In this document: positions 9,611 to 64,000 of the stretch, one piece after another | Numbering within the stretch: position 1 is the stretch's first letter | Layout: the number at the start of each line of letters is the position of its first letter | Source of the DNA: Stegostoma tigrinum | Lineage: Eukaryota | Direction of reading: 5' to 3' | Length of the DNA stretch: 64,000 nt | Assembly (NCBI RefSeq): GCF_030684315.1 | Contig: NC_081356.1 | Location: forward strand, 26,561,197 to 26,625,196 | Made by a program: the position numbers and the translations under genes | The notes under the pieces: generated by a model | Databases searched by the model: none | What the model saw: the letters and a program-made list of their open reading frames with translations, nothing else | What the model was told of the DNA's origin: nothing

Positions 9611-11363
9611 TAGAACATAGAACATAGAACAGTACAGCACAGAACAGGCCCTTCAGCCCACAATGTTGTGCCGACCATTGATCCTCATGTATGCACCCTC
9701 AAATTTCTGTGACCATGTGCATGTCCAGCAGTCTCTTAAATGACCCCCAATGACCTTGCTTCCACAACTGCTGCTGGCAACGCATTCCATGCTCTCACAA
9801 CTCTGTGTAAAGAACCCGCCTCTGACATCCCCTCTATACTTTCCTCCAACCAGCTTAAAACTATGACCTCTCATGCTAGCCATTTCTGCCCTGGGAAATA
9901 GTCTCTGGCTATCGACTCTATCTATGCCTCTCATTATCTTGTATACCTCAATTAGGTCCCCTCTCCTCCTCCTTTTCTTCAATGAAAAGAGACCGAGCTC
10001 AGTCAACCTCTCTTCATAAGATAAGCCCTCCAGTCCAGGCAGCATCCTGGTAAGCCTCCTCTGAACCCTCTCCAAAGCATCCACATCTTTCCTATAATAG
10101 GGCGACCAGAACTGGACGCAGTATTCCAAGTGCGGTCTAACCAAAGTTTTATAGAGCTGCAACAAGATCTCACGACTCTTAAACTCAATCCCCCTGTTAA
10201 TGAAAGCCAAAACTCCGTATGCTTTCTTAACAACCCTGTCCACTTGGGTGGCCATTTTCAGGGATCTATGTATCTGCACACCAAGATCCCTCTGTTCCTC
10301 CACACTGCCAAGAATCCTATCCTTAATCCTGTACTCAGCTTTCAAATTCGACCTTCCAAAATGCATCACCTCGCATTTATCCTGGTTGAACTCCATCTGC
10401 CACCTCTCAGCCCATCTCTGCATCCTGTCAATGTCCCGCTGCAGCCTACAACAGCCCTCTATACTGTCAACGACACCTCCAACCTTTGTGTCGTCTGCAA
10501 ACTTGCTGACCCATCCTTCAATCCCCTCATCCAAGTCATTAATAAAAATTACAAACAGTAGAGGCCCAAGGACAGAGCCCTGTGGAACACCACTCACCAC
10601 TGACTTCCAGGCAGTATATTTTCCTTCTACTACCACTCGCTGTCTTCTGTTGGCCAGCCAATTCTGTATCCAAGCAGCTAAGTTCCCCTGTATCCCATTC
10701 CTCCTGACCTTCTGAATGAGCCTACCATGGGGAACCTTATCAAATGCCTTACTGAAGTCCACATACACCACATCCACAGCTCGACCCTCATCAACTTTTC
10801 TAGTCACATCCTCAAAAAACTCGATAAGGTTTGTGAGGCATGACCTACCCCTCACAAAGCCGTGTTGACTGTATTTGATCAAGCCATGCTCTTCCAGATG
10901 GTCATAAATCCTATCGCTCAGAATCCTTTCTAACACCTTGCAGACGACAGACGTGAGACTTACTGGTCTGTAATTGCCGGGGATTTCCCTATTCCCTTTC
11001 TTGAAGAGAGGAATTACATTTGCCTCTCTCCAGTCCTCAGGTACGACTCCAATGGAGAGCGAGGACGCAAAGATCTTCGCAAGTGGCGAAGCAATTGCAT
11101 TTCTCGCTTCCCAAAGCAGCCAAGGACAAATCTGGTCCGGGCCTGGCGACTTGTCAATCTTAATGTTTGACAAAATTTTCAGCACATCAGCTTCCTCTAT
11201 CTCTATCCATTCCAGCATGCACACCTGCTCTTCAAAGGTTTCATTCACTACAAAGTTCGTTTCTTTCGTAAAGACAGAAGCAAAAAACTCATTTAGGACT
11301 TCCCCTACCTCCTCAGACTCCACACACAAGTTCCCTATGCTATCCCTGATCGGCCCTACTCTT
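9611..11363 (-). mobile_element. young CR1 LINE, 3' portion (RT domain and 3' tail)
   Basis: 558-aa ORF 9653-11329 with PGPD, NYRPVSLTS, QHGF, DFSKAFDKV, GVPQGSVLGPLLF and FADD motifs; (ATGTTCT)n tail at 9611-9630. Confidence 0.96.
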
Positions 11364-42450: not shown

Positions 42451-45400
42451 TTACATATTATCTATGTTGCCCTTCTTATACAAAGGAACAACATTGGCTA
42501 TTCTCCAGGGAATACTAATATTGAAGAACTGCTTCCATTGTTGGAATGTTAGAGAACAAAGACAACAGGTAAAGTAACTGGCAACATGAAAAAAAAACTT
42601 TTTTATTCAGCTAGTGTTCAAGATCTGGTTTGTCTTAGAATGTGGCAGAGTTAGGATCAGTCAAAGTTTTCAAGGGGGAATTGGATTGTTATCTGTGCAA
42701 AAATAATGTGTGCGATGACAGGGAAAAGGCGGGTGAGTGGCACTAGTTAAACTGCACCTACAGAGAACTGACAGATGTGTTGGTCCAAACGACATCCTCC
42801 TGTGCTGTAACAATTTCTATATTCCCTGAAGATTGAATTTTGTCACCATCTTGAATGCACTCTCCAAGCTGTTTGAAGTCACAGCATGATTATAAGGTTA
42901 GTCCACCATGTAAAGCAGATAAAGGCTCAAAAATGTAAACTTCATGATTAAGGCATTGGATGGGTGGGGATAGTAGTGCTAAGATAACAACTTTTAAAGG
43001 GAGAGAAAAATTGAAAATGCCATACCATGGATTAGTACACTGTTAAGGGAGAAACATAAATAGTGCCTAAGATGTAAATTATCTCAATATAAAGTCTAAA
43101 GTTAAACAGTTTCTTCGAATCTTCAATTTTTGATAAAACATGAACTGCCCTGGAAAAGTCTATTAATTTTCATCTATTTTGGTCACACCATATTACATCA
43201 GTATCAATGTGCACAACCTAATTTGTAGAAATGTAAAATTTAGTTTTAAAATTTACTGTGCTGTAATGTTCTATGTTAATATATGTTTAAAAACGAAAAA
43301 CAAAGTGCATGTATATAGCTGAGATAACAAAGTGTGGAGCTGGATGAACACAGCAGGCCAAGCAGCATCTTATGAGCACAAAAACTGATGTTTCAAAGCC
43401 TAGACCCGATATAGCTTCTTTCACTTCAGTAGGTTCCACACCACTATTCAACAAGTGAACAACTTGAGTACAGTCACAGTTGGAATGCAAGAACTACAAT
43501 ACAAACAGCAACATAATATGACCAAATAATCCTTTTCTTATGATGTTGGAACACAAACATTGCTCAATATAGTATAGAGGCCTCATTGCTCATCAAAACA
43601 GCGCAATGCCAAATGTGCTACTAGATGATTTTAGTACTAAGAACACTGGGAGACGATAATATCAAAGGGTATAATTCTAAAAGTAGCGCACAGACCCGAA
43701 AGGACAGATATGGTCTCAGATTAACATCTTAAACAATAGTGCAAAACATGCTTATTATGGCACTGGATTTATCAAAATGTTCCAGAGAGCAATGACATGA
43801 TGTAATTCATTTTCTTTGCCTAAAACGTGCATCTTGATATTGCACAATACATAGAATGGAAACAGGACTCTTTCATACAAATCATGAGATACAGTAAATA
43901 GTGAAACAATACGTATTTACTTATTAATATAGTTACTGTATCATGGCCAATAGTAATTAAATTGTAATCCTATAATGAAATTATTAGTGGATTATTAATG
44001 CTAATGAGAATGTAAATACTGTCTTAAATTCCCTTTAAAATTTCTTAGAACTTGACAGGTAGTTCGATTACAAGTAAAGTTCAGTATACTAAATTACATG
44101 AAAGGACAGGATCTAAAACTATGTGATGAACTGTGACTAACTCAGAACACATCTCATCAAAATGACTAACCATTGACTTCCAGGCTATTATTAACACAGG
44201 TCACCTACACTGAAAAATAAGGCATGCACATGTACATGCTTCCTCTAACCGTCAGTCTACAAAATAATGTCCATCTTTCAGGAACAAAAGAAACAGCAAA
44301 TGAATGAACTAAAACAGAAGAATGCATTTATTCAAAAATGACTACAAGAAATTTGTTAACTGACCATCAAAGACACATTTGCTCTACACATAGTTGGGCA
44401 TGGTACAAAACTGATCAAGTACAATTTCATGAACCAAAACAACTGTGTTAGATATGTCACTTCTTCCTTCATGGTAATTACCCACTTCTCCCTTGTTTCC
44501 TTGTTCCATTTGCTGGCAAGGGAAAAATGAGAGAGTGTGGTGCTAAGTGTTACAGGTGGGACCGAACTGAATACCTGAAGTTCCATTTGGATATACCTAT
44601 TTCCCTTCAGGCTCCTTACATTTACCAATCTTCCTTTTTCAAAAAGCAGAGCACTGTGAATGCTGAAATTTGAAATAAAAACAAGCACTTACTTAGAAGC
44701 TCAGACAGCATCCGTAGAAATAGAAGTGGTGCTAAATTTTCAAGGTGATGACCCTTCATCAGAACAGGTAGTGTTAAGACTGCACTGTTATCCAACCTAT
44801 TACAGACTTGACTTAGTCCCTATTAACCCATCCGCCCCTTTGCTGAAAACCATCACTCCCTACTCTCAAGCACTTTTATTAATGGTTATCAACTTTGATG
44901 CATAACTCTTTATTTTTCCATAGTTGCTGCCTGACCTCCTGAGTAATTGCAACCTTTTCAGAATTTTATTTCCTGGAAGCTGAATGCATTCTCCAGAGCT
45001 CTTTAACATAGAATAAGGGTGGTTTTACACTTTTCTAACAGAAATTGTAAGGCATAGGGGAGAAATGGGAATGCATGCCTGTAAGTTTTTCAGGTGGGAC
45101 CAAACCAAACTGAACATACGAAATGCCGCTCAAATGGACCAGTTGTTTCTAGACTTGAGGGCGAACACCTCATCTTCTGCCCAGGCATTTTACAGCTTTC
45201 AGGAGCAAATACAGTTTACCAATTCAGAACATGACTATCGTTCATGTTGTTATCCTCCCCAACCCCATTGGTCCTGTTTTGCATGTGTTGCTCCCAACAC
45301 AGCCATCCTGCTTTCAACCATTGTTACTTCTTGTTAACATCCTGCCCAGCATTTCTCTCCCTTAGCTTAATATCTGCAATCTCTGTTTACCTATCCTTTT

Positions 45401-46130
45401 TTCCATTCTCTCTCTCTCTCTCTCTGGGCACCCCACTCCCCTCTGCATCCTGTCATCAACATTAAAAAACACCCCTTCCTAGACTAATTTTAATTATGAC
45501 CATGGGTCACTGGACTCGAAATGACATTTTTTTCATTCTCAGATGTTGCCAGATCTGCTGAATTTCTCCAATATTTGTCAATTTTTGTTCTCCTCAAGCT
45601 CCTACCAATTACCACTGCGTCAGCCTTTTTTTTTATACTGCGGACGCTGGAAAACTGAAGAAGAGTTTCCTCATCAGGCCCGTAAGGAAGACTGCAGCAC
45701 GAATCGGGTCACCACCTCCAACTGAGACAGGTGAGGGGCACAGACAGGAACACGGAGACCCACGCTGCAAGGCGGAACCTCAAAGCCACGCCCCCTTCCT
45801 CACAATAGACTCACAGCGTCGCGCAAAAGCGCTTCGCTCGACTCCAGGTAACGTGGGAGCGCGGAGGGTTGGGCGTAACCCATTCCACACCAACATGTTG
45901 GGAGCAACACTGCACCCATCCCCCACCCACTTTCCTCCCCCACCACCATTGTCTCTGCCAATCACCTGCGCCGTGCTCGAGCCCGGACCACTCCTGGACA
46001 CTTGCAGGTTTCCCCCACGCTCAAAGTCACGCCCCTCCTTTCTTCCCTCCACCCCCGGGGGTGGCGCGGCCGTCCGTTGCGTCGGCTTGCGCCTCCACTT
46101 CGCCAAACCCCCCACCACCCTTTTCCTCAC

Positions 46131-46254
46131 CTGGCTGCTCCTTGAGCTTCATGATGGACAGGGTGTAGTGAGCCATGTCGAAGAAAGGGTACATGGAAAT
46201 CCGGGAAAATTGGATGACGAAATTGGTCAGCCCCAACGTCGATACGATATCCAT
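46131..46254 (-). CDS. TMEM38B: TMEM38B (TRIC-B trimeric intracellular cation channel), coding exon 1
   Basis: ATG at 46254; MDIVSTLGLTNFVIQFSRISMYPFFDMAHYTLSIMKLKEQP+G resembles the TRIC-B N-terminus (FSRxSMxPFFDxAHY...KxQPG). Donor CAG|GTGAG; 124 nt, phase 1. Confidence 0.93.
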
Positions 46255-46768
46255 TCTTAATTGTTAACAAACCCCTCTTTTTTTAAAACAATGTAGGTTT
46301 TTTTTAATGTATGAAAACAGACAGCTGTAAGGAAACTGCAGAGAGAGGCCGCAGCCGTATCGTGTTACCGGCGTTAATCCCCGAGTTTACACAAGTGGGT
46401 GTCGGATGTCTCTCTGAGCCCAGGCTGTGGCGATCGGGATGTAAGAGTGTTTGGACTAGATTGTTATGCCGACAGGGAAGCCCACCCCCGGTTCAACCAG
46501 CGATGTTGGAGAAACTGCCGCTTTTCTCTCTCTCGGGGGGAGGGAGGGTTTAAATGGAGAGCGGAGGCGCGCGCACCGAGCCTACCAGACGGGAAATGTG
46601 GAGTTGACAGTGCGCATGCGTGAGACGCCACACCGCCGGTTCAGCATCAGTATCGTTCCCATCCATTCATTCTCTGCACCCGGTCAAACACCGTCGAAGA
46701 AGAAAGTCCAGTCAGCTTTAATAGAAACAAAAATAGATAATTGGTGTGAAATCTCCACAGGTCTACTT

Positions 46769-46798
46769 CTGAAGACGGGTCACTGGACCCGAAACGTT
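46769..46798 (+). ncRNA. hammerhead ribozyme core motif (PLE pLTR-derived) at the upstream edge of the TMEM38B promoter
   Basis: CTGAAGA C GGGTC-ACTG-GACCC GAAAC GTT: CUGANGA box, perfect 5-bp stem II, GAAA box. Stem I pairing appears lost. Confidence 0.6.
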
Positions 46799-49058
46799 CG
46801 CTCTGTTTTCGCTGCACAGATGATGCCAGATCTGAGGTTTTTATTTCCTGCAATTTTTTTTAATTTCTGATTTCCTCCATCTGCAGTTCTTCAAGTATTT
46901 TTGTGGAGCCTTTATAAAGCGCTGGGGTAAATGTGCTTCTGTGTCACCTTTCATAATCTCAGGATGTCCCAATCTACTTTGTGGCTTATTATGTTCTTTG
47001 CAATTGTAGTCACTGTCATAATTTAAGGAATAGGTTGCTCAAGGAAAGCTTCCATGCCACACAATGTAATAATGACCAGGGAATGTGTGATCAAGGTGTT
47101 TGGAGGGATACGTATTGACCAGGACTCCAAGGTGACATTGCTCTTTTTCCAAATAGTGCAACAGGGACCTTGTAGGTTCACTTAAGAATACAGACAGAAC
47201 TTTAATTTAACAGCCATCTCACCTGACATATGTCATATTTGACTGTGCAGCACTCTCTATTTCAGAATTCTATGCTCAGATGCATACAGGGGCTTGAACA
47301 GCTGCATGGTTGGACAGTGGTCAGTACTGCTAGGGACCAGGGCTCGATTCCTATGTGGTGTTTGTACATTCTCTCCATGTCTGTGTGCTTTTCTGCTAGG
47401 TGATCCAGTTTCCTTCCATAGTCCAAAGATGTACAGGTTAGGTAGATTGGCCATGTTAAATTATCCCAGAGTGCCCAGGTTTGTGCAGGCTGGGTGGGTT
47501 AAACATGGCAAATGTAGGATCACGGAGATAGGGTGGGTCCAGGTGGAATGCTCTTCCGAGGGTCAGTGCAATTCAATGGGTTGAACAACTTCTATCTGCA
47601 TGGAGGAACTTACAATTCTGACTCAGGCAAGGATGTTACCTATTGAAGATGCTGAGTTACTAGTAATTCTTCTTCCTCCTATTAGAGTCATAGAGCTAAC
47701 AGCATGGAAACAGACCCATCTGTCCCACTCGTCCATGCCAACCAGATATCCTAAATTAATCTAGCCCCATTTGCCAGCATTTAGCCCATATCCCTCTTAA
47801 ACTCTTCCTATACATGACACCACCATCTACATGAAAAAGTTGCCCCTAGGTCCCTTTTAATCTTTCCCCTCTCACCTTAACCCTATGCCCTCTACTTTTG
47901 TACTCCCCCATCCTAGGGAAAAGACCTTGACTATTCACCCTATCCATGCCTCTCATGATTTTATAAACCTCTATCAGATCGCTTCTCAGTCTCTGACGCT
48001 GAATAGGAAATAGCCCCAACCCATTCAGCCTCTCCCTATAGTTCAAACCCTCTAACCCAGGCAACATCCTTGTAAATCTTTTCTGAGCCCTTTTAACAAT
48101 CTTGTTCCTATATCAAGGAGAATACAGTATGCCAAAAGTGCCTAACGAATATCCTGCTCAGCTACAACATCACCTCCCAACTCCCACACTCAGTGCACTG
48201 ACCAATGATGGCGAGTGTACCTCTCCCTGCCTCCAAATTTACTAGATCAGGTGAAATATTGATTTTACACCCTTTTGCTCTTTACTATTCCACTTCAACA
48301 TAACGTAAACTCTGGTAGGCTTTGAAAACAATATTGCCACCTATCTTAAAGTTAAACAATTGGGAAAAAGTAAATTTTAAAAAACCCTTTGGCTGAGTCT
48401 AATGTCAACAATTTGCATAAACATTTGCATTTTCCACCTTGTGAGTAAGGCCAAAGTTGTTTCTACAGTTCAAAAACAGGCCATTCAATCCACCTTTATT
48501 TCATGTTTACATTTATACTCTACAACATTCCGGTTCTATTCTACATTATTCCACACAATCAATATTTCTTCCTTTTTGCTTCATGTGTTTCTACATGTTT
48601 TCCCCCATGTGCATCTTTGCATTTCAATGTACAACGTCTCCAATTATGGTCTAATCAAGGTTCAACATGAGTTGAACATCTCTAATTCCATTTTATACCT
48701 CTAGAAATGAACCATTGTGGCTGTTTTAATAGCCTTATTATCACTGCTTTTAGTGATTTATAAATCAGTATGGCTCAATCCTGTATCAGTCTCTGACTTT
48801 TTGCCTAAAAAGCTGTTGTCTTTCTTATTCCTACCATCCTAAAGTTTGTATATTGAAATTCATTAGCCATTTACACATCTATTCTGCAAATTTATTCATT
48901 CATTTTTGTATTTTGTTACTTGCAACAAGTGGTTCTGCAACACCGATAGCTAGCTCCATGATAAATGAGGTAAAGTACTGACAGTATTTTCCCTTTCTGC
49001 ATTCTCCATTAGAAGCACATACCCTTGTTTTAATAGACTAATCCAAACCCTCACTGTT

Positions 49059-49100
49059 ACTACTACGACTACTACTACTACTGCTACTACTACAACAACA
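49059..49100 (+). repeat. (TAC)n/(AAC)n microsatellite
   Basis: Directly visible imperfect trinucleotide run. Confidence 0.85.
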
Positions 49101-49617
49101 CTCTATTGACTATTCTTCTATTTGTTCCTTCATTCTTATACCCGGTACTTTTAGATTCCTTCTTGCAGTTGTTGACTTAGAAATTCAAGTGATTATTTTC
49201 AAGCAATAGTTTGCACTTGTACATTATTTTTAAGTATTAAGGCAATTTGAAGGAGCTGTAATTAAACAGAATTTGTATAATTAAGCTGAATGCTGGATGT
49301 GAGTTTGCTCGCTGAGCTGGAAGGTTAGTTTTCAGACGTTTCATCACTTTTTTTATTTGAAAAAATATACTTTATTCATAGAATGTACAAAAAAAATTTA
49401 TACACATACCCAGTCATACAAGCCGCTCCGGGTTACCCGGGGGTACGTACACCAACTAAAGGCAAAAACAAAACAAAGAAAATAAACAAAGCAAAGAAAA
49501 TACCCCAGCAGTCGTCTCCCAACACAGTCCCCATTGGGCCCCCTGACCAGTTGGGAAAGGCGCCAGCTGGGCCCAGTTACCAGACAGGGCCCTTTTTTCT
49601 ATTCTGGACGAGGGGTT

Positions 49618-52600
49618 TCATACCGTGGTCTTTCCCCACCTCGTCTTGGCGGCGGCTGCCCCAAGCTTTAGTGCGTCCCTCAGCACATAGTCCTGGATCT
49701 TGGAGTGTGCCAGTCTGCAACACTCGGTCGGGGTCAGTTCTTTCAGCTGGCAGACCAGCAAGTTGCGGGCAGACCAAAGAGCGTCTTTCACTGCATAGAT
49801 GGTCCTCCAGGCGCAGTTGATGTTGGTCTCGGTGTGCGTCCCGGGAAACAGCCTGTAGAGCACGGAGCTGTTCGGGACGAACCTCGACAAATACCACTGC
49901 ATCCCCCTCCAGACCTCCTGCGCATAGGCACACTCCAGAAGGAGGTGATCGACAGTCTCGTCCGCCCTGCAGCCGCCTCGAGGGCAGCATGCGGTGGTGC
50001 AAAGATTCCGGGGATGCATAAAGGATCTCACTGGCAGAGCCCCTCTCACTGCCAGCCAAGCAATGTCCTTGTGCTTGTTTGAAAGCTCTGGCGATGAGGC
50101 ATTCTGCCAAACGACTTTGGCAGTCTGCATGGGGAACCACACGACAGGATCCACCCTCTCCTTTTCCCGAAGGGTCTCAAGGATAGTACGTGCAGACCAC
50201 TGCCTGACAGCCTTGTGGTCAAAGGTGTTTCCCTTCAAAAATTTCTCCACGAGGGACAGGTGGTACGGGACGGTCCAACTACTCAGAGCATTCCGCAACA
50301 ACGAGGCCAGGCCCATCCTTCGCAACACCGGGGACAGGTAGAACCTCAGTAAGTAGTGACACTTGGCGCACAGCCTGATGCAGCCGCACACAAAGGTAGC
50401 TGTCAGGGCGAGGGTGGCGTTCGGTGTGCTCTTTTCCCCATTTTCCAGGTCTTTGTACAATGTGTCCCAGCGGACCCGGTCCATCCTCAACCCCCAAATG
50501 AAGTGGAAGATGGCCAGGTGACCGCAGCGGCGCAGGTCCAGGGAATAGGCCAGGCCTGCACCACATACAACAGTACCGAAAGCCCCTCTCACCTGACAAC
50601 CAGGTTCTTACCCGCGATGGAGAGGGATCGGAGCGTCCACCTGCCCAGCTTCTGCTTCAGTTTGGTGATACGCTCCTCCCAAGTCTTAGTGCACGCCCCA
50701 GCTCCACCAAACCAAACACCCAGCACCTTCGGGTAGTCTGTCCTGACGGTGAAGGGGATGAAGGAGCGGCCGTCCTAGTTCCCGAAGAACATGGCCTCCC
50801 TCTTACCCCTATTGACTTTGGCACCCAAGGCCAGTTCAAATTGGCCGCAGATGTCCAACAGCCTACTCACCGACCGCCGATCGGTGCAGAAGACGGCGAC
50901 ATCGTCCATGTACAGGGGAGGTCTTGACTTGAAGGCCTCCACTGTCTGGGATAGTCACGCCCTTCAGGCTCACATCCTTCCTGATGGATGCGGTGAAGGG
51001 CTCCACACAACACACGAACAAGGCAGGACAGAGCAGGCAGCCCTGCCTGACTACAGATCTGGCGGGAAAACTGTCCAATTCCCACCCGTTGATCGAGAGT
51101 GCGCTAACGATATTGGTGTGGAGCAGCCGGATCCAATTGCGGATGCCCGCCCCAAACCCCAATTTGGAGAGGACGTCCCTCATGCAAGCATGAGAGACCC
51201 TGTCGAAGGCCTTCTCCTGGTCCAGGCTGACGAGGCAGGTGTCCATGTGCCTGTCCTGCACGTAGGCGATCGTATCCCTGTTGACTGTGAGGCTCTCAGT
51301 GATCTTCCTGCCCGGCACAGCACAGGTTTTGTCAGGGTGAATCACCGACTCCAGGACAGACCTGACCTGGTTGGCTAGGACCTTGGCCAGGATTTTGTAG
51401 TCCACGTTCAATATTGAAATGGGATGCCAATTCTTAATTTCTTCCCTCTCCCCCTTCCTCTTGTAAATGAGGGTGATGATGCCCTTCCTCATGGACTTGC
51501 ACATTTCCCCTGCCCGAGGCGCACTATCGTACACCTCCAGCAGGTCCTGGCTGACCAGGTCCCACAAAGCAGAATACAGCTCGACTGGTAAGCCGTCGCT
51601 CCCAGGAGTCTTATTCCTCTCCAAGGACTTGAGGGCTCTGGTCAGCTTGTCCAGGGATATCGGCAGGTCCAGCCATTCCCTCGTGTCGTCATCTAAGACC
51701 TCAATGATAGACGACAGGGACGACTTGGAGGCCGTGCTGTCCCTGGGCTTCGCGTCATACAGTCCGGCATAGAAGGATCTGCTGATCCTCAAAACGTCGG
51801 GCCGAGATGACGTCACCGAGCCGTCACCCTCCTTCAGCCGGCTAAGCGCAGAGCTCTCTTTGTGCACCTTCTGAAAGAAGAAACGCGAGCACGTCTCGTC
51901 CTGCTCTACGGAGCGGACCCTGGACCAGAAGATTATCCTGGAGGCCTCCGCGGCGAAGAGCAAGGCTTGCTGGCCCCTCACCTCACAGAGGTCCTCTGTG
52001 ACATGGACTCCCATCAATACATGAAGGAGCAGGTTCTGCACCCTTTTCTGGAGTCGTGACAGCTTTCCCCGCCTCTCTCTCTCCTTCCGAACACCCTGGA
52101 GGACAAAGAACCTCTTGATGTTCTCCATCACCGTCTCCCACCAGTCGCCCGGAGACCCAAAGAGGGGTTTCACGGTTCTCCAACCAGCGTACTCCCTCTT
52201 AAGCTCCTCGACGTTCTCTGGGGTCAACACAGTCGTATTGAGCTTCCACGTCCCCTTGCCGGCCGGCTGGTCGTCCTGTAAGTGACAGTCAGCCAGCAGG
52301 AGGCAGTGGTCAGAGAAGAACACCGGCTGTACGCTGCTGGACCTGACCGAGAATGCCCGTGACACAAACAGGAAGTCTATCCTTGAGCGAAAAGACCCGT
52401 CTGGCCGCGACCAGGTGTATCTCCGCTGCGTTCCGTCTGCAGGGGTGCTGAAGACGTCGAGCAGCTTGGCATCCTTCACCGTGCCCATCAGGAATCTGGA
52501 CATGACGTCCAGTTGACTCCCCCCACCCGCTGTCCCCACGCCAGATCTTCCATCTGCATCGATGATGCAGTTGAAGTCTCCACCTAGGATGACCGTCCTG

Positions 52601-53011
52601 GACGTAGCTAGCAGGGTGGAAGCCGCTGCAGGACGGCCAACCGCTCACTCCGTACCGCTGGGACGTACATGTTGATCAGCCTCAGGGGAGCGTTCCTGTT
52701 GGTGACGTCAGCCACTAGGAGGCGCCCCCCCCAACCACCTCCTGAACTTGAGAGATGGTGAAGTTACGCCCCCGCAGCAGAATAGCCAGGCCCGAGGAGC
52801 GACAGTCGTTACCCCCCCCCCCCCCCGACCAGATCGAAGGCCCACAGGTCCAGGCACCAGACCAATTACTGTACCTGCCAAGGTGCGGTATCCCGCACTC
52901 CTGCAGAAACAGGAGGTCCGCCCTGACGGTGGTCACGTAGGCCAACGTGGACACACATCTTCCGGTGGACTTGACACTGCGCACATTAATGCTCGTAACT
53001 CGTACCCCCAT
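49618..53011 (-). pseudogene. Tx1 ORF2: APE endonuclease + reverse transcriptase + C-terminal zinc finger, several frameshifts/stops
   Basis: MGVRVTSINVRS, FLQE, SRIDF, FSDH, GTWKLN, PGSDGLP, PISILNVDYKI, LDQEKAFDRV, VRQG, LYMDD (~50900), CPRGGC...ETVDHLLLEC. Confidence 0.93.
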
Positions 53012-54457
53012 TGTGGGCAGTGACCGCAGTACCCTCCCCAAGTCCAAGGTCCAGCCCCTCCATCTGTCCCTTCATGCCCATTGCCGGGGCTAACTGCTGG
53101 ACGCTCTCTGGGCTCAGGAAACCGTCCGTGCTGCCTTCTGGGTGGCATCCCCCCATCGGGGGTACGGAGGCAGGAGAGTCTGGCTCTGGGTCAGGCTGGG
53201 GACGTGCTGTTTCCTCCTTCCCACCTGGAAGTTCCGGGGGGCCCTCCAGGGCCCCAGCGGCACGTGGCTGGGTGTCGGAGGGAGCCTCAGGATGCCTCCC
53301 GTCACCTGGAAGCGGGGTGCTGCTTTCCTTCTCCCTTGAGATCTTTAGCTTCTGCTTTGGGCGGGCCTCCTCCAAATCTCCCTCGTCAGAGGAGCTCTTA
53401 TAGCCCCCCTGTAGCTGCCTCTTCCCACCTGATGGTTGCGGTGCCTGGGCCTGCCGGCGTGCCTTCCTCCTCGCTTTCCGGACCGTCGTCCACTCCCCTG
53501 GGTCACCTGTCGCCGCCTCCATCAACTCCGGGTTGTCGGGGGAGGGGGGGGGAGTGGAGCCTGCAGGGGCGCTTTGCTGGCCTTGGGTGCATCCTGAGGG
53601 GCTGGGCCCTCCTGCACGACCTGGCCCTCCTGCACATTAGTGGGGTCCTTGCAGGGCCCTGGTGCCTTCCTCTCCTCCGGGAGGGCTGGCCCTGCATTGC
53701 CCCTGCCGGTGACCTGGGCGTAGGTGGTCCCCCGCTGTGGGCATGCCCTATAGAGGTGGCCCGCTTCCCCGCAAAGGTTGCAGCTTTTCTCTTGTGGACA
53801 ATTCTTTGCAAGGTGTCCCTCCTCCCTGCAGTTCCTGCAGATGGTGGCTTTGCAGTCGGCCGCCACATGACCTGACCTACCACAGGCTTGGCAGACTTTA
53901 GGTTGCCCTGCATAGGTCAGATAGCCCTTGCTCCTGCCGATCGCGAAGCTGGACGGTGGGTGTACGACATTCCCGTCCGCACCGATCCTCAGCGTCACCT
54001 TGACCTGCCTCTTACTGGTCGAGATGCCAAAGGGGTCCATGATGTCAGTTAGGTCCCCTTCCACCTTCACGTACCTTCCAAGGAAGGTCAGGACATCAAC
54101 TGCTGGCACACGCGGGTTGTACATGTGTACAGTCACCATACGGCTCCTCTGTGCTGGCATCACAAACAGCGGGACAGCAGTCAACACAGAGAGGGGGCCC
54201 TCCCCTCCTTTCTCCTTGAAAACCTCCAGGAAGCGCTCGCAAAGCTTGGCACTCCTGAAGGTCACATCGTAAAAACCTCCTCCGGGGAAATCCTGCAGGC
54301 AGTAAATGTCCGCAGCAGCGAACCCGCAACAGTCCAACAGGACCCTCTTCACGAAGAAGGTGCGGTCCGCAGGTGCACCTTCATCCACCTTCTTTGCGGA
54401 AACACGGATGGTGTTCCGGACCCCCTGACCTGAGGCACGAGCACTTGCCGCAGCCAT
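52986..54457 (-). pseudogene. Tx1 ORF1, gag-like protein with three CCHC zinc knuckles (ZCCHC3-like); frameshift in the C-run near 53540
   Basis: MAAASARASG... with CQACGRSGHVAADC, CRNCREEGHLAKNC and CNLCGEAGHLYRAC. Continues in the 52986-53525 frame. Confidence 0.9.
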
Positions 54458-54657
54458 CGTTGCAGGTTGGCTGCTCCCCTGAATCAGCGTTAGGCCGAAG
54501 CCAGCATTAAGATCCACCGGTTGCAAGGGTGCACAGCCAACCCGACGTCTTCCTTTCAGCTCCAACACAGCGCTCTCCTCCTCTCGGTCCGCAAGAGAGT
54601 GGGTCTTTATTTTGTTCCGGATGTAAGCTGGTTCACTGAGCTTGAAGGTTTGTTCCC

Positions 54658-54698
54658 AGATGTTTCGTCACCTTTCTAGGTAACATCAACAGTGAGCC
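54658..54698 (-). ncRNA. hammerhead ribozyme motif spanning the PLE/Tx1 5' junction (mutated)
   Basis: GGCTCA CTGTTGA T GTTACC-TAGAAA-GGTGAC GAAAC ATC TGGG: 6-bp stem II and GAAA box intact. The CUGAUGA box carries an A>U change. Confidence 0.7.
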
Positions 54699-56752
54699 TC
54701 CGACAAAGCACTGGTGTTATGTCCCGCTTTCTATTTATTTGTTTAGGTTTCCTTGGGTTGGTGATGTCGTTTCCTGTGTTGGTGATGTCATTTCCTGTTC
54801 TTTTTCTCAGAGGATGGTAGATTGATTTGGAGCCAATGTGTTTGTTGATGGAGTTCCGGTTGGAATGCCATGCTTCTAGGAATTCTCGTGTGTGTCTCTG
54901 TTTGGCTTGTCCTAGGATGGATGTGTTATCCCAATCAAAGTGGTGTCCTTCCTCATCTGTATGTAAGGATACGAGTGATAGTGGGTCATGTCTTTTTGTG
55001 GCTAGTTGATGTTCATGTATCCTGGTGGCTAGCTTTCAGCCTGTTTGTCCAATGTAGTGTGTGTCACAATTCTTGCAAGGTATTTTGTAAATGACGTTCG
55101 TTTTGCTTGTTGTCTGTATAGGGTCTTTTATGATTGCTGAATGCTGCAATAATATTTTAAGACAGGATGCCTAAGTCTGATCCAATAAGTTAGTTTTCAA
55201 AAGTCCCTAAAAGGAAAAGTGGGAGCTTTAGGGAGGGCAAAGTAGTAGTTTTAGGCAGTGAATGCCAGAGCTTAGCATTGATCCAGTTGAATGTGTGATT
55301 GTCAATGTTAGGGATACAAAAAGCAAGAATGCAAAAATATCCAAATTTATGTAAGACCTGGCAATTAGTCCTCATGATTGTCAATTTCTTACATTATTTT
55401 ACTGGTATTTTGATTCAGGAAAAGTAGAATCCTGAATCAATTTGAATTATATGACTGAATAAAGAACAGTAGACTGCAGATGAAAGAGTTGGGCAGGTGG
55501 CAGCACAGATAGGAGAGTTGGCAAGTAGACATGTGTCTCAAGGAGTGAAACAGCCCATTCTAAAGTTGGGACACAGGTTTTATTGGCTCTGACAAGAAAT
55601 TATGCCAAATCATGACACGATGTATGTGCACAGGTCCTGTTGTATGAGCAGTGCTAAAGTGGAGTGTTGCTAAATTAGGCAACTTAAAATGAAGAGTTAC
55701 TCTAGGTACCATTAGTTTTGACACCCTTACCAAAGGAAACTGTTTCTACATCTACTTGATGAAATTATTTTAAGCTCTTTGATCAGACTGCCCCTCAATC
55801 TGTACATTCACAGGAATGCAAGACATAGGAATGCAACCCATTCTCATAACTTTCATAACATTCTCATAATCATTTCGGCCTGAGTATCATTTTAGTGAAT
55901 GTAATTTCCAGAATGAAACATCACTGTGCTCCTGTGATGTGGTGCTCTTAACTATATGCAATATTCTTGCTGGAATCTAACCAAGGTTCTCTACAGTTGA
56001 AGTGTAGTTTATTCCCCCTCGTATTCAGGCCACTTGCTTGTTGTGATCAATGTTAATGATTCGGACTTAAGTGTAGAGGGTATGATCAAGACATTCAAGG
56101 TGACATGAAAATTAGTGAGGTGGTAAACAGTGACGGAGATAGCCATGAACTGCAGAAGGATATCCACAGACTGGTCAGCTGGGCAGAGCAGTGTCAAATG
56201 TTGTTCAACCTAGCAAAGTGTGAGGGAGTACTCTGAGGAAGGAATAACAAGGCAAGGGACTGCACTATAAAATGATAGGATCTTGGAGAGTAATGAAGTT
56301 CATTGGGACTTGGCATGCATGTCCATAGATTCCTGAAAGTGGCAGGACAGGTGATGAGTTGATTAAGAAGACCTGTGGGATTTTTGCCTTTATTAGCCAC
56401 AGCATAGAATACTAGAACAGAAATAATGAGAGAACTGTATAAAATGCTGGTTAAAATAGAGTACTGTGTGCAATCCTAGTGACCAAATAATGAGAAGGAA
56501 TGTGATTGCTCTAGAGAGCGTGTGGAGGAGATTTACCCGGAACGTCAGCCTTCCTGCTCCTCTGATGCTGCATGGCCTGCTGTGTTTATCCAGCTTCACA
56601 CTGTGTTATCTCAGCATCTGCAGTTCCTACTATCTCTCAAAAATTTAATTCATTTAGAGGTATTTTGCTCCATTCAAAGGCCTACTGTAGCCATACAACA
56701 GACATCATGTCTGAACAATCTTGCCCAATGTATAATAATGGTGACATTTTAC

Positions 56753-57085
56753 ATAGAACATAGAACAGTACAGCACAGAACAGGCCCTTCAGCCCACGAT
56801 GTTGTGCTGACCATTGATCCTCATGTATGCACCCTCAAATTTCTGTGACCATATGCATGTCTAGCCGTCTCTTAAATGTCCCCAATGACCTTGCTTCCAC
56901 AACTGCTGCTGGCAACGCATTCCATGCTCTCACAACTCTCTGTGTAAAGAACCCGCCTCTGACATCCCCTCTATACTTTCCTCCAACCGGCTTAAAACTA
57001 TGACCCCTCGTGTTAGCCTTTTCTGCCCTGGGAAATAGTCTCTGGCTATCAACTCTATCTATGCCTCTCATTATCTTGTATACCT
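56753..57085 (-). mobile_element. young CR1 3' end (same subfamily as 9611-11363)
   Basis: Nearly identical to ~9616-9947; encodes MRGIDRVDSQRLFPRAE; ATGTTCT tail. Confidence 0.93.
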
Positions 57086-57094
57086 ACAACAAGC

Positions 57095-57165
57095 TGCGTG
57101 GGCCGGGAATTGAACCCGGGCCTTGCGCCTAGCAGGCGAGAACTCTACCACTGAACCACCAATGC
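57095..57165 (-). pseudogene. tRNA-Gly(GCC)-derived pseudogene
   Basis: GCATTGGTGGTTCAGTGGTAGAGTTCTCGCCTGCTAGGCGCAAGGCCCGGGTTCAATTCCCGGCCCACGCA, 71 nt, 8 differences from the recalled vertebrate tRNA-Gly(GCC). Anticodon GCT; mismatches in the acceptor and anticodon stems. Confidence 0.88.
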
Positions 57166-60100
57166 CAGAAGCTGTGGTTTTAAAAGTGGAATTTAAAACT
57201 GAATCAAATACAAAGAACCCATTGACAAATAAAAGATTTTTGTCATGCCATGTTTCCCGCCACTGACCTTGAACTAATTTGATTACTTAATGACTCTTTA
57301 ATGTGATCATCAGTTTTATTTCATATTCTCGTTTTAGTAAATTGTAAATAGTATTAAGTGCTATAACACCTGATGCAGGTTAAATGTCAGGAATTAGACC
57401 TATGAACATGATGCCATCTTGTGCAGTAGATGCTGATTTATTGAACTCATCCAGGAAGAGATGAAGCTCTTCCTGGTTGGGGCAGAGATCACCTTTCACC
57501 TTCACTGTTTGCCTGAATTTATCTCAGTAGCAAATGTATTCCAATAACAATATACAGCTTTTCACCCATGTTCTGCTTCTGGTTTATTTGCATTGACATA
57601 AGGGGCTAACATTTGTACTCTGCCAACATTTACATGTGTAGTGTGAACTAACCAGGTATTATCTGCTGAGATTATAATTAAAACTTTTAAATGGAAATAA
57701 TCTGAATCTGAGTCTTGAAGATTGAAAGTAATGGAGCTGTGAGTATTTTCTTTGGCAGCTTGTTTCATTGTGGAATTCATTGGAAAGGATGACTGTTGAT
57801 ACACTGTTTTGGAAACAAATGGTATTTGTAGTTTGTGTGGATAGCAACCTTATTTTGTTTTTTATTGCCGGAGGGTATGAAACACTTGACTCTGTCAAAT
57901 CCCAGAGTGCATTTCATACTTTGTAGAACATACGATTCTCTTTCCATATCTTTGATCCAGGCTACAATACCGTTATAAATCCCATACTGGCTGTGCAGAA
58001 TCATGTTGTAATTTTTTTAATCAATTCATTCTTCTGTCTGTTGCCATATAAGGATTTCACAATTTCATTATGCTGGATCAGTTGTACCAAGTGTTTGTTA
58101 CAGTATAACTCTAATATTTTTATTGTAGTAGCAATAATTCCTTTTTAGAAACTGAAGAAACTGTTCACTAGGCTGTTACAACAGTGCAGTACCAAAGGGA
58201 CACTGTACTGCCAGAGGTGTCATCATTTAGATGAGAAATGGTTGCAATCTCAAAAGTTCCTTCAAGTGGTCATGAAAAGATTGCATAACACTATTTCAAA
58301 GTGGAACAGTCGTGTACTCCAGTTGATTATTTATCCATCAAACATCATCATTAAAATGGATTATATCGTCGTTCCCATTTATGGGACTTTATTGAGTGCA
58401 AATTGACTTCTGTTTTTCCTACAACGCAACAGTGTTCAATGAAGTTCAGTTTGTAATATCTGTGAACACATGAAAATAACTCTAAAAACAAAATCTGAAA
58501 TTGAAGTGTCAAATTCAGGGAGTGTCATTGGAGGTTTTATCTCCATAAACTCAAGCACAATTGTCTAATGCAATTTTGTGCTGCTTACCTAATTAAATAT
58601 GCTTCACACCTCCACAATGCCAATCTCCTATCATCCGGCAGAAATGCCTCCTGCTGCTGGGACCTTCTGGGTTTTCTGACACCAGTGCATTAGTTGAAAT
58701 ACTGCAAGCCATTTATTAATTTATACTGTTAAAGTGTATGAAGAATTACTCAATGGACGGTCAAGAGAGTGGTAGAGGAGGGGGTGTGGAGGTAATCTGT
58801 GGAATTCTTTACGACTGTGAGTTATCAAGACAGAGTCACTGAGTAAATGCAAAACAGTATAGATTTTTTTTAATCACTAAGGAAATCAAGCGTGATGGGG
58901 TAAAGCAGGAGTGGGGAGTTGAGCATTATTCGATCAGCCATGATCTCATTGAATGGCAGAGCAGATTTGATGGGTCATATAGCCTTCTGCTCCTATGTTT
59001 TAGAATTTTAAAAGGTTCACAAATAAAATTTTGTGATTACAAATGCTTTTAGCCAGTACTGTGTAAGTGCCTGAGCATTACAATTGCCCATTGAAGGGCT
59101 TCACATCACTCACAAATAGACCTCTCCTTCAGGCAATTAAAAAGTACAGTCCATCCACCCCAAAGTAGTGGCAATCATTTTTTATTTCCATTGTGCATTT
59201 GTGATTTGGTTGAGGATAAAGGTAGCACTTCAAGAAAATGATTTGCAGGTTCAGCCTGTCAATCTTGGTGACTCTCCAAATGTTGATGTTCCTTTTTGCC
59301 TAACACTCCATGCCAACCCTATCAGCTTTGAGCCTCCTCATCTCTCAATCCAAACCTTATATTTGATTTTTCATATCTTCACTGTACACTGGAGCCCCAG
59401 GCCTAACATCATTTGCCAAACATCATTATGGCAGTGCCCCTCCTAAGGCAGTGACAGTCAATGACCCCATTTTGTGTTTTCACGCCATCACTGTCATTCT
59501 TGCACGTTCTTGGCCTTTTTACAGTTGTTGTCCTCTCTGCATCCTGGCATGCAGTCTCCAATTCATATTCTAATGTTCCCCAGTACCCTCAGATAAGAGT
59601 GGAAACTGTGATTGATAACTGATTGAACCCCTGACTCATTGATGCAGCTCCCCGGCTGACTTAATATGAAGCGCTAGACTGTTTGCGGTGGACCTGACCA
59701 TAGACAAACTGACCAGACCGTAACATAACAGATCCCAACTCTGAATGCTCCAAGTATGTCCACACCCCTGAACTGATATTAGATGTTGCCATTACTGACA
59801 GTGACATCAGCCCCCGACTGATGACAGTTGCCTTTGACATTACTAAAGATTTAAGCTTTGAGATATGGCCATTTGGTTGAAGCACGTTGTGTTTTTGTCA
59901 TGTAAGCTGCTGGCACATGGTGCAGGTGTGAAATTGAAATAACACATCCTGGTGCAGCAACATTTCTCCCTTTAACTGATTGTGGCTGGAGAACATGACA
60001 AGCTGTGTGGTTTTGTGTCTGCTTGAAGTAGAGGCAAGAAAGAAGTACTGTGGGTCTACAAGTTCTCAAAGAGTTGCAAATGTGCAAAAAGACAAGGGAA

Positions 60101-62809: not shown

Positions 62810-64000
62810 ATAAAATGTGAGGCTGGATGAACACAGCAGGCCAAGCAGCATCTCAGGAGCACAAAAGCTGACGTTTCGGGCCGAGACCCTTCATCAGAGA
62901 GGGGGATAGGGTGAGGGTTCTGGAATAAATAGGGAGAGAGGGGGAGGCGAACTGAAGATGGAGAGAAAAGAAGATAGGTGGAGAGAGTATAGGTGGGGAG
63001 GTAGGGAGGGGATAGGTCAGTCCAGGGAAGATGGACAGGTCAAGGAGGTGGGATGAGGTTAGTACGTAGATGGGGGTGCGGCTTGGGGTGGGAGGAAGGG
63101 ATGGGTGAGAGGAAGAGGTTAGGGAGGCAGAGACAGGTTGGACTGGTTTTGGGATGCAGTGGGTGGAGGGGAAAGGCTGGGCTGGTTGTGTGGTGCAGTG
63201 GGGGGAGGGGACGAACTGGGCTGGTTTAGGGATGCGGTGGGGGAAGGGGAGATTTTGAAACTGGTGAAGTCAACATTGATACCATTAGGCTGCAGGGTTC
63301 CCAGGCGGAACATGAGTTGCTGTTCCTGCAACCTTCGGGTGGCATCATTGTGGCACTGCAGGAGGCCCATGATGGACATGTCATCTAAAGAATGGGAGGG
63401 GGAGTGGAAATGGTTTGCGACTGGGAGGTGCAGTTGTTTGTTGCGAACTGAGCGGAGGTGTTCTGCAAAGCGGTCCCCAAGCCTCCGCTTGGTTTCCCCA
63501 ATGTAGAGGAAGCCACACCAGGTACAGTGGATGCAGTATACCACATTGGCAGATGTGCAGGTGAACCTCTGCTTAATGTGGAATGTCATCTTGGGGCCTG
63601 GGATAGGGGTGAGGGAGGAGGTGTGGGGGCAAGTGTAGCATTTCCTGCGGTTGCAGGGGAAGATGCCGGGTGTGGTGGGGTTGGAGGCCAGTGTGGAGCG
63701 AACAAGGGAGTCACAGAGAGTGGTCTCTCCGGAAAGCAGACAGGGGTGGGGATGGAAAAATGTCTTGGGTGGTGGGGTCGGATTGTAAATGGCGGAAGTG
63801 TCGGAGGATGATGCGTTGTATACGGAGGTTGATGGGGTGGTGTGTGAGAACGAGGGGGATCCTCTTTGGGCGGTTGTGGCAGGGGCGGGGTGTGAGGAAT
63901 GTGTTGCGGGAAATACGGGAGACGCGGTCAAGGGCGTTCTCGATCACTGTGGGGGGAAAGTTGCGGTCCTTGAAGAACTTGGACATCTGGGATGTGCGGG
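62810..64000 (-). mobile_element. Penelope-like element, Neptune-type (Cys-rich linker + GIY-YIG endonuclease + pLTR), runs off the window end
   Basis: PCNRRKCYTC linker; NVVYCIHCTWCGFLYIGETKRRLGDRFAEH...VANHF...EQQLMFRLGTLQPNGIN; RIPLVLTHHP upstream in another frame (frameshift). Confidence 0.92.
62870..62897 (-). ncRNA. minimal hammerhead ribozyme in the PLE pLTR
   Basis: CTGATGA A GGGT-CTCG-GCCC GAAAC GTC: intact catalytic boxes, GUC cleavage triplet and palindromic ACGT stem III, as in dimer-forming PLE hammerheads. Confidence 0.78.

Follow-up and report, generated by a model that had tools for sequence, protein, structure and literature searches.

A Tx1-like LINE family at one site in the hammerhead-like pLTR of a Penelope-like element in Stegostoma tigrinum

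A 64,000-nucleotide stretch of Stegostoma tigrinum DNA (assembly GCF_030684315.1, contig NC_081356.1, positions 26,561,197 to 26,625,196), referred to here in its full length as the window, contains a Tx1-like long interspersed nuclear element (LINE) nested in a Penelope-like element (PLE). The LINE is frameshifted, lies on the minus strand at 49348-54672, and interrupts a 5'-truncated PLE that is flanked by an 11-bp target-site duplication (TSD). The interruption falls where the pseudo-long terminal repeat (pLTR) of the PLE resembles a hammerhead ribozyme. Was this site struck by chance, or is it the target of a LINE family, and how are the two ends of the LINE joined to it? We find a multi-thousand-copy Tx1-like LINE family whose members share a single pLTR site of a resident PLE.

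Site specificity of the LINE family

The target site follows the A-tail in all 92 family 3' ends sampled regardless of flank, 81 of which lead into a PLE tail and 11 into another LINE copy. These ends consist of the 30 best DNA hits (window copy included), 30 and then 12 more copies taken in order of position on contig C1, and 20 copies located with a fish protein. Every member of each sample carries the target, with a 7-base deletion at the junction in one of the 12 further copies. In the reverse test, 30/30 A-tailed target sites hold the Tx1-like family. A LINE has been counted as target-specific when more than 20% of its flanks are of one type (PMC4494074), and here the figure is 92/92. No U2 small nuclear RNA (snRNA) flank, as in a Keno-type insertion, occurs among 122 distinct 3' ends. 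An earlier, sequence-only reading of this locus had proposed the targeting from the single copy and had named heterogeneous 3' flanks as the outcome that would refute it; tabulation of the 3' flanks extends the proposal to the family, and no such heterogeneity was seen in the 92 ends. Target specificity is thus well supported.

The 3' junction is fixed at TAGAAT/GGTGAC, at times one base later. It reads tail/GGTGAC in 84 of the 122 ends, tail/GTGAC in 37, and otherwise in one, with the qualification that 30 fetched loci were chosen on the GG form and that the junction G may be ambiguous. The usual junction thus lies one base further 5' than the position first proposed. An A-tail and a duplication of the target site, the signature of target-primed reverse transcription (TPRT), are both present. 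The 3'-terminal 26-mer of the LINE has 2,289 exact matches in the genome and the 36-base empty target site has 6,927 occurrences, both lower bounds because the exact 26-mer is kept in only 16/30 copies of one sample.

At the 5' side, PLE sequence lies upstream in 27 of 30 ends, two others being tandem and one rearranged. Thirty-two of the 42 position-ordered copies are full length (28 with PLE upstream, 4 in tandem); the other 10 comprise seven copies in centre-less inverted pairs, one interrupted copy, and two unresolved ones. A constant 3' flank could by itself mean that a PLE tail belongs to the LINE as its 3' end and that insertion is unrestricted. We give this next to no credence, as the PLE also lies upstream in 27/30 5' ends and in 28/32 full-length copies (the remaining four being tandem), the A-tail precedes the PLE tail rather than trailing it, and the tail ends are the PLE's own short and long ends.

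The target site and the window copy

Empty sites read CTGATGA-T-GTTACC-TAGAAT-GGTGAC-GAAAC-GTC. The insertion site is the edge between loop II and stem II in the pLTR hammerhead and falls within codon 5 of the PLE open reading frame (ORF); because the same DNA forms the start of this ORF, the LINE splits codon 5. The hammerhead core (CUGAUGA, GAAA, NUH, and a stem II closed by G10.1-C11.1) is present by sequence in empty sites and is lacking in the window's own junction copy. In minimal PLE hammerheads position 9 is followed by one additional base, stem II is long and closed by a G-C pair, and the 15.2-16.2 step is palindromic (PMC4209133); the empty target site fits this description, down to a palindromic ACGT, and is a putative ribozyme. 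Stem II of the target forms in the computed fold (z -1.3, not significant alone), and an Rfam scan of window positions 44000-60000 returned no hammerhead match, only a tRNA-like one. The ribozyme itself had been proposed as the target. The fixed site does lie in the hammerhead, but the object of recognition is the DNA of the pLTR, in which the hammerhead and the PLE start codons are both encoded.

The target PLE has a pLTR with the minimal hammerhead, a tail, and inverted pairs. A long, frameshifted copy of the PLE family (locus L191) shows RVT_1 above cut-off followed by GIY-YIG at E 0.0013, below the curated cut-off. Empty PLEs end in a short or a long tail form, the same two that are found behind LINE copies. 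Most of the targets are tails of truncated PLEs, and only two independent 5'-complete PLE starts occur among 29 loci, neither of them occupied, 25 of the 29 loci checked for occupancy of the 5' pLTR stopping short of the PLE start. The label 'hyperparasite', given to the LINE in the sequence-only reading, is not borne out by this distribution. An older PLE family, ~70% identical and with its own hammerhead (L125 minus 6807; L229), is not a target among the 122 ends. Some PLE 5' ends stop ~15 nt upstream of the site, just ahead of the start codon (L267, L274, L275, and L121); the first three have a common flank and look like segmental duplicates. The upstream PLE also gave the impression of a fixed 5' limit, which was rejected as an artefact of the window copy's truncation.

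The features of the window copy are given below from the 5' end of the PLE. Positions relative to the site are numbered with +1 as the first G of GGTGAC (window 54672).

55136-55146, minus strand: 5' copy of the PLE TSD, 11 bp, an exact repeat with two occurrences in the window
54693-55130, minus strand: PLE body, 5'-truncated, comprising the C-terminal GIY-YIG part and the pLTR, ~82-95% identical to empty PLE copies
54659-54692, minus strand: 5'-junction motif resembling a hammerhead, with changes in both core boxes (CTGTTGA; GAAACATC)
54686-54684, minus strand: PLE start codon, inside this motif, placed by reading the PLE N-terminus
54672-54659, minus strand: 14-bp duplicated site, inside the same motif
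54614-54672, minus strand: target-like LINE leader of ~60 nt; similarity to the PLE tail roughly 80%, diagnostic letters fixed
52986-54457, minus strand: Tx1 ORF1, two RBD_ZCCHC3 domains and CCHC knuckles, one frameshift near 53560
49618-53011, minus strand: Tx1 ORF2, apurinic/apyrimidinic endonuclease (APE), reverse transcriptase (RT), and zf-RVT, frameshift-broken in this copy
49355-49617, minus strand: Tx1 3' untranslated region, which served as the family query
49348-49354, minus strand: A7 tail
49335-49347, minus strand: 3' copy of the duplicated target (GTGATGAAACGTC), with the 3' arm of stem II, the GAAA box, and the cleavage triplet
49296-49334, minus strand: PLE tail, short form ending CACATC; the same short and long tail ends occur in empty PLEs
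49285-49295, minus strand: 3' copy of the PLE TSD

The TSD of the PLE is GCTGAATGCTG, which occurs exactly in the window only at 49285 and 55136. Upstream of the LINE lie ~440 bp of PLE sequence, ending in CTGTTGA (54692-54686), GTTACC, the loop TAGAAA, GGTGAC, and GAAAC-ATC. After A7 the minus strand continues as GTGATGAAACGTC-TGAAAAC...CACATC and then the TSD. ORF2 is in five frame pieces and ORF1 in two, and the copy is ~92% identical to intact young copies. As first noted from the sequence, removal of 49348-54671 rebuilds the PLE end, but the true pre-insertion allele is not recovered, because the 't' of CTGtTGA is most likely LINE-borne. The loop TAGAAA is likewise present in the window copy but private to it, the family loop being TAGAAT.

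The PLE start codon opens a 17-codon upstream ORF that ends in the LINE leader (window 54633-54686, minus strand); its stop is made by a T at +38 that is present in 59/60 junctions. In several LINE copies the ORF1 frame is open for ~70 codons ahead of its ATG.

Independent insertion and the joining of the 5' end

LINEs truncated at the 5' end occupy the identical site, flanked on each side by PLE, at five loci (L055, L172, L235, L236, and L240), and at a sixth (L220) behind a full copy. Three of these (L172, L235, and L236) have a clean 14-bp duplication, +1 to +14, whose end is the predicted hammerhead cleavage base. The duplication reads 16 in L055 and L220, where the last two bases may be microhomology. 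Insertion in inverted pairs is frequent among these PLEs, and pairs with one empty arm provide a comparison within single loci: the occupied arm tracks its empty partner over -105 to -21 (15 pairs; permutation p 0.005 and 0.01), and site -70 is concordant between the two arms in 12/14 pairs. The tandem pairs L125/L126 and L131/L132 are only as similar as random pairs, with different leaders. Across tandem and both-arm partners, leaders often differ and 5/9 pairs are no closer than random.

These observations bear on whether a single old insertion gave rise to a PLE-LINE-PLE composite that was then spread by the PLE RT and GIY-YIG enzyme, so that the flanks were inherited. In favor of such spread, units end in PLE-type tails and whole-unit TSDs are kept; at three loci (L139, L150, and L151) a pair of arms, each bearing a LINE, is joined within the LINE, and at two of these loci the arms are related; A-tails are fairly uniform, and truncated junctions recur. 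As an account of the family this is nonetheless highly improbable. Full-length LINEs make up 32/42 copies, whereas most empty PLE copies are short; truncated LINEs have PLE on both sides and the 14-bp duplication; occupied arms resemble their empty partners; tandem and both-arm partners frequently have different leaders; and the tails of young copies reach 20 or more A. Independent targeting is therefore favored as the main route on the strength of the truncated copies, the matching empty arms, the differing partners, and the full-length excess, and composite-spread events may make up a minority of loci.

Both-arm-occupied inverted PLE pairs form long inverted repeats, and their centres are frequently missing (L139, L140, L142, L150, L151, and L155).

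The leader differs from the target at +17, +18, +38, +41, +43, and +45 in 51-59 of 60 junctions, and its diagnostic letters are rare in empty sites and 3' flanks. It also shows covariation with the 5' body of the LINE (r 0.26, p 0.0005, in an alignment with row L155 mis-cut and row L150 dropped). The near-fixed letters together with this covariation identify the leader as part of the LINE. It had been taken as the mark of earlier insertions at the same site; it is more than such a relic, being an inherited part of the element. Because the leader rebuilds the target, it explains the tandem stacks. At locus L216 the PLE tail of the 3' flank carries leader-type letters mid-way, possibly the source allele of the leader or a product of conversion.

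Further LINE-linked alleles lie within the 14-bp duplication and beyond it on the upstream side. An A at +12 occurs in 43/60 junctions and a TGATT variant in ~10/60. A T at -17, giving CTGTTGA, is present in 34/60 5' junctions versus 1/51 empty sites and 63/6,927 target-type sites genome-wide. In the one-arm inverted pairs this T is found in 7/15 occupied arms and 0/15 empty partners, and the truncated copies L055 and L172 retain A. Upstream of the site, LINE-linked alleles thus extend over 17 nt or more. Judged by the positions known to be essential to hammerheads, the +12, TGATT, and -17 changes each strike the hammerhead core or the helix of its dimer. An intact pair of core boxes is found in 2/60 junctions versus 35/51 empty sites, the latter figure being too high because part of the core had served to select many of these sites; among unselected empty arms it is 7/17, by eye.

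The pattern at -17 indicates that CTGTTGA was probably written in from LINE RNA, as in R2. It could instead mark an older PLE subfamily that the LINE prefers, or reflect later gene conversion among LINE copies. A few empty PLEs do have the allele (of 10 inspected hits, 6 read CTGTTGA and have a PLE tail), and just one diagnostic site was found upstream. We regard both origins as doubtful, given that the allele is present at <1% of target-type sites, that empty partners of T-bearing arms have A, that one leader subfamily contains both states, and that the truncated L055 and L172 keep A.

Several results weigh against independent targeting with a LINE-borne leader. The six truncated loci may represent only four events, because truncation points recur (L172/L235; L055/L220). 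The 14-bp figure derives in part from a search pattern designed around it, 4/21 matches of which were LINE junctions; a 16-bp pattern gave LINE junctions in 0/1, and an 11-16 bp pattern in 2/13, both of them already-known 14-bp cases. Comparison of whole arms in inverted pairs gave no signal (5.7% within versus 5.0% random). Four of the nine partner pairs are closer than random (both-arm L150 and L151, 2/5; tandem L133 and L137/L138, 2/4), and both-arm occupancy of inverted PLEs is commoner than expected, with 10 divergent pairs within 16 kb counted by hand among the first 100 family 3' ends listed (contig C1). Covariation of the upstream PLE with the LINE 5' body is borderline (p 0.053). The downstream PLE tail shows no covariation with that body (p 0.65), a null result that is weak because the Mantel positive control, LINE 5' body against 3' part, was not significant either (p 0.37). 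Related copies, finally, are not independent counts.

Taking the junction sequences together, the LINE likely inserts at the pLTR site by TPRT with its own APE endonuclease, and its target-like RNA leader would pair to complete the 5' end. The bottom strand would be nicked at the edge of loop II and the top strand at +14. The LINE RNA would start in the upstream pLTR, beyond -17, probably from the PLE promoter. Its hammerhead copy appears mostly disabled, so that the RNA would go uncut by the ribozyme and the upstream arm would stay on it. The cDNA end would then anneal to the target, overwriting it past -17 in roughly 60% of events. Uniform 5' junctions and an abundance of full-length copies would both follow from such annealing and overwriting, and we infer a homology arm with overwriting as a mechanism that the data support.

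The coincidence of the duplication end with the predicted cleavage base allows for a different origin of the +14 junction. Targeting would be real, but the hammerhead would cut PLE RNA after GUC, and the released piece would be ligated or template-switched onto LINE RNA to serve as the homology arm. The duplication in truncated copies does stop exactly at that base, and L236 lacks microhomology at its junction. Joining at the RNA level is nevertheless unlikely. A 14-bp stagger is an ordinary outcome of TPRT, and many copies have inherited leader alleles (positions +7 to +12, and -17) that break the ribozyme. For the anole PLE, PMC11167929 reports no reads ending at the cut site, and cleavage was dispensable in vitro.

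Returning to DNA-level cutting and a LINE-borne arm, the pieces can be combined into a tentative picture in which the LINE parasitizes the Penelope ribozyme in a homing-like manner. Still active and of APE type, the element would place a 5.3 kb full-length copy into a 30-bp site; it would be transcribed from the PLE promoter and use a disabled hammerhead as its homology arm. Its top-strand cut would fall at the base where the ribozyme cuts RNA, target ribozymes would be converted to a dead form, and a fresh landing site would be rebuilt for its descendants.

Proteins and related elements

ORF2 encodes Exo_endo_phos (the N-terminal APE domain), RVT_1, and a C-terminal zf-RVT, and ORF1 encodes the first and second RBD_ZCCHC3 domains and zf-CCHC; both sets match the ORF architecture of the Tx1 clade. 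Of the 40 best protein hits, 36 are without a stop, and 20 of these differ by a median of 1.1%, so the family has been active recently. Young copies have an intact ORF2 and tails of up to 20 or more A, and the endonuclease motifs are intact in L129. A PDB sequence search with the endonuclease region gave 0 matches.

The nearest ORF2 relatives are amphibian proteins (45-49% identity), and ORF2 is 36% identical to Takifugu BAD04856, which we take to be one or another of the elements of Kojima and Fujiwara 2004. In a FastTree of 52 proteins, a clade of 32 with support of 100 holds the Tx1-like ORF2, a Danio 'transposon TX1' protein, and BAD04856; the tree is without typed Tx1L, Keno, Kibi, Koshi, or Mutsu rows and without a labelled L1 outgroup, and P0033, P0049, and P0054 were left out. 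Named ORF1 relatives (P0056-P0066) are from sharks and rays, several being annotated as ZCCHC3-like host genes. Contigs from four sequencing runs of other organisms cover relatives of the PLE and of ORF2, with the empty-site join in two runs; no bridge across a PLE-LINE junction occurs among the listed pieces from these four.

Targeting of other transposons by Tx1 elements is known. Tx1L of Xenopus laevis inserts into the piggyBac-type Tx1D (PMC4494074, PMC6719617, PMC1919474), and like the family described here it is a two-ORF APE-type LINE that targets another transposon. The shark target differs in being a retroelement pLTR with hammerhead and start codons, and Tx1L is not named among the protein matches. 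The crocodilian Tx1-Mar, Tx1-8_Crp, Tx1-4_AMi, and Tx1-9_AMi are also transposon-preferring, with Mariner, LTR-retrotransposon, or Harbinger targets, and their partner short interspersed element (SINE) inserts in tandem (PMC4494074). Specificity here is 92/92, against a threshold of 20% there. Keno, a U2 snRNA-specific Tx1 element, has a different target.

The closest parallel for the 5' end comes from R2, whose RNA carries upstream 28S sequence that was proposed to anneal to the target, giving uniform junctions and propagated variants (PMC3774820). The likeness lies in target sequence at the RNA 5' end and in duplications absorbed into that end. R2 differs in having a restriction-like endonuclease and its own active ribozyme resembling that of hepatitis delta virus (PMC3774820), whereas for the shark LINE the ribozyme belongs to the target, as a hammerhead of which the LINE carries a copy that looks disabled.

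The target PLE in turn resembles PAc of Anolis, a Penelope/Poseidon element with RT and C-terminal GIY-YIG whose ORF begins at stem II (PMC11167929). The predicted cut site of the target PLE lies 28 nt downstream of its ORF start, against 26 nt in PAc, and the short and long tails match the two RT start sites of PAc. The sections of that paper covered describe no LINE insertion.

A PLE or hammerhead target for a LINE was not found in the literature searched, although Repbase, Dfam, the supplements of PMC4494074, and Kojima and Fujiwara 2004 could hold one. Penelope has 0 occurrences as a target in the main text of PMC4494074 (figure 3 labels and supplements lie outside this scope), and the parts covered of PMC4640811, PMC6136364, and preprint 10.64898/2026.07.22.740005 contain no Penelope or hammerhead LINE target. 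Relative to this literature, the PLE is a new target type.

The family adds the ribozyme and start-codon region of a retroelement to the list of LINE targets. The data support R2-like, homology-assisted 5' joining by an APE-type LINE in a vertebrate genome. The open question of how LINEs join their 5' ends becomes testable in this family, which offers copies in the thousands, natural marker alleles to either side of the nick, empty control arms in inverted PLE pairs, and numerous young copies whose ORF2 is intact. For targeted gene insertion, too, a site-specific LINE that mostly inserts at full length is of interest.

Other features of the window are a degenerate ACT microsatellite near the 3' TSD (49053-49099), a tRNA-like Rfam match of 40.9 bits (57095-57165, minus strand) that may be a gene, a pseudogene, or a SINE head, and a degraded LINE RT region (10355-11350, minus strand) that is 25% identical to ORF2 of the Tx1-like family. 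A further minimal-hammerhead-like motif, with a 3-bp stem II, lies at 62897 (minus strand) in a different repeat with no inserted LINE. Two short repeats, at 45491-45521 and 46764-46794, are related to this motif and are likewise free of an inserted LINE.

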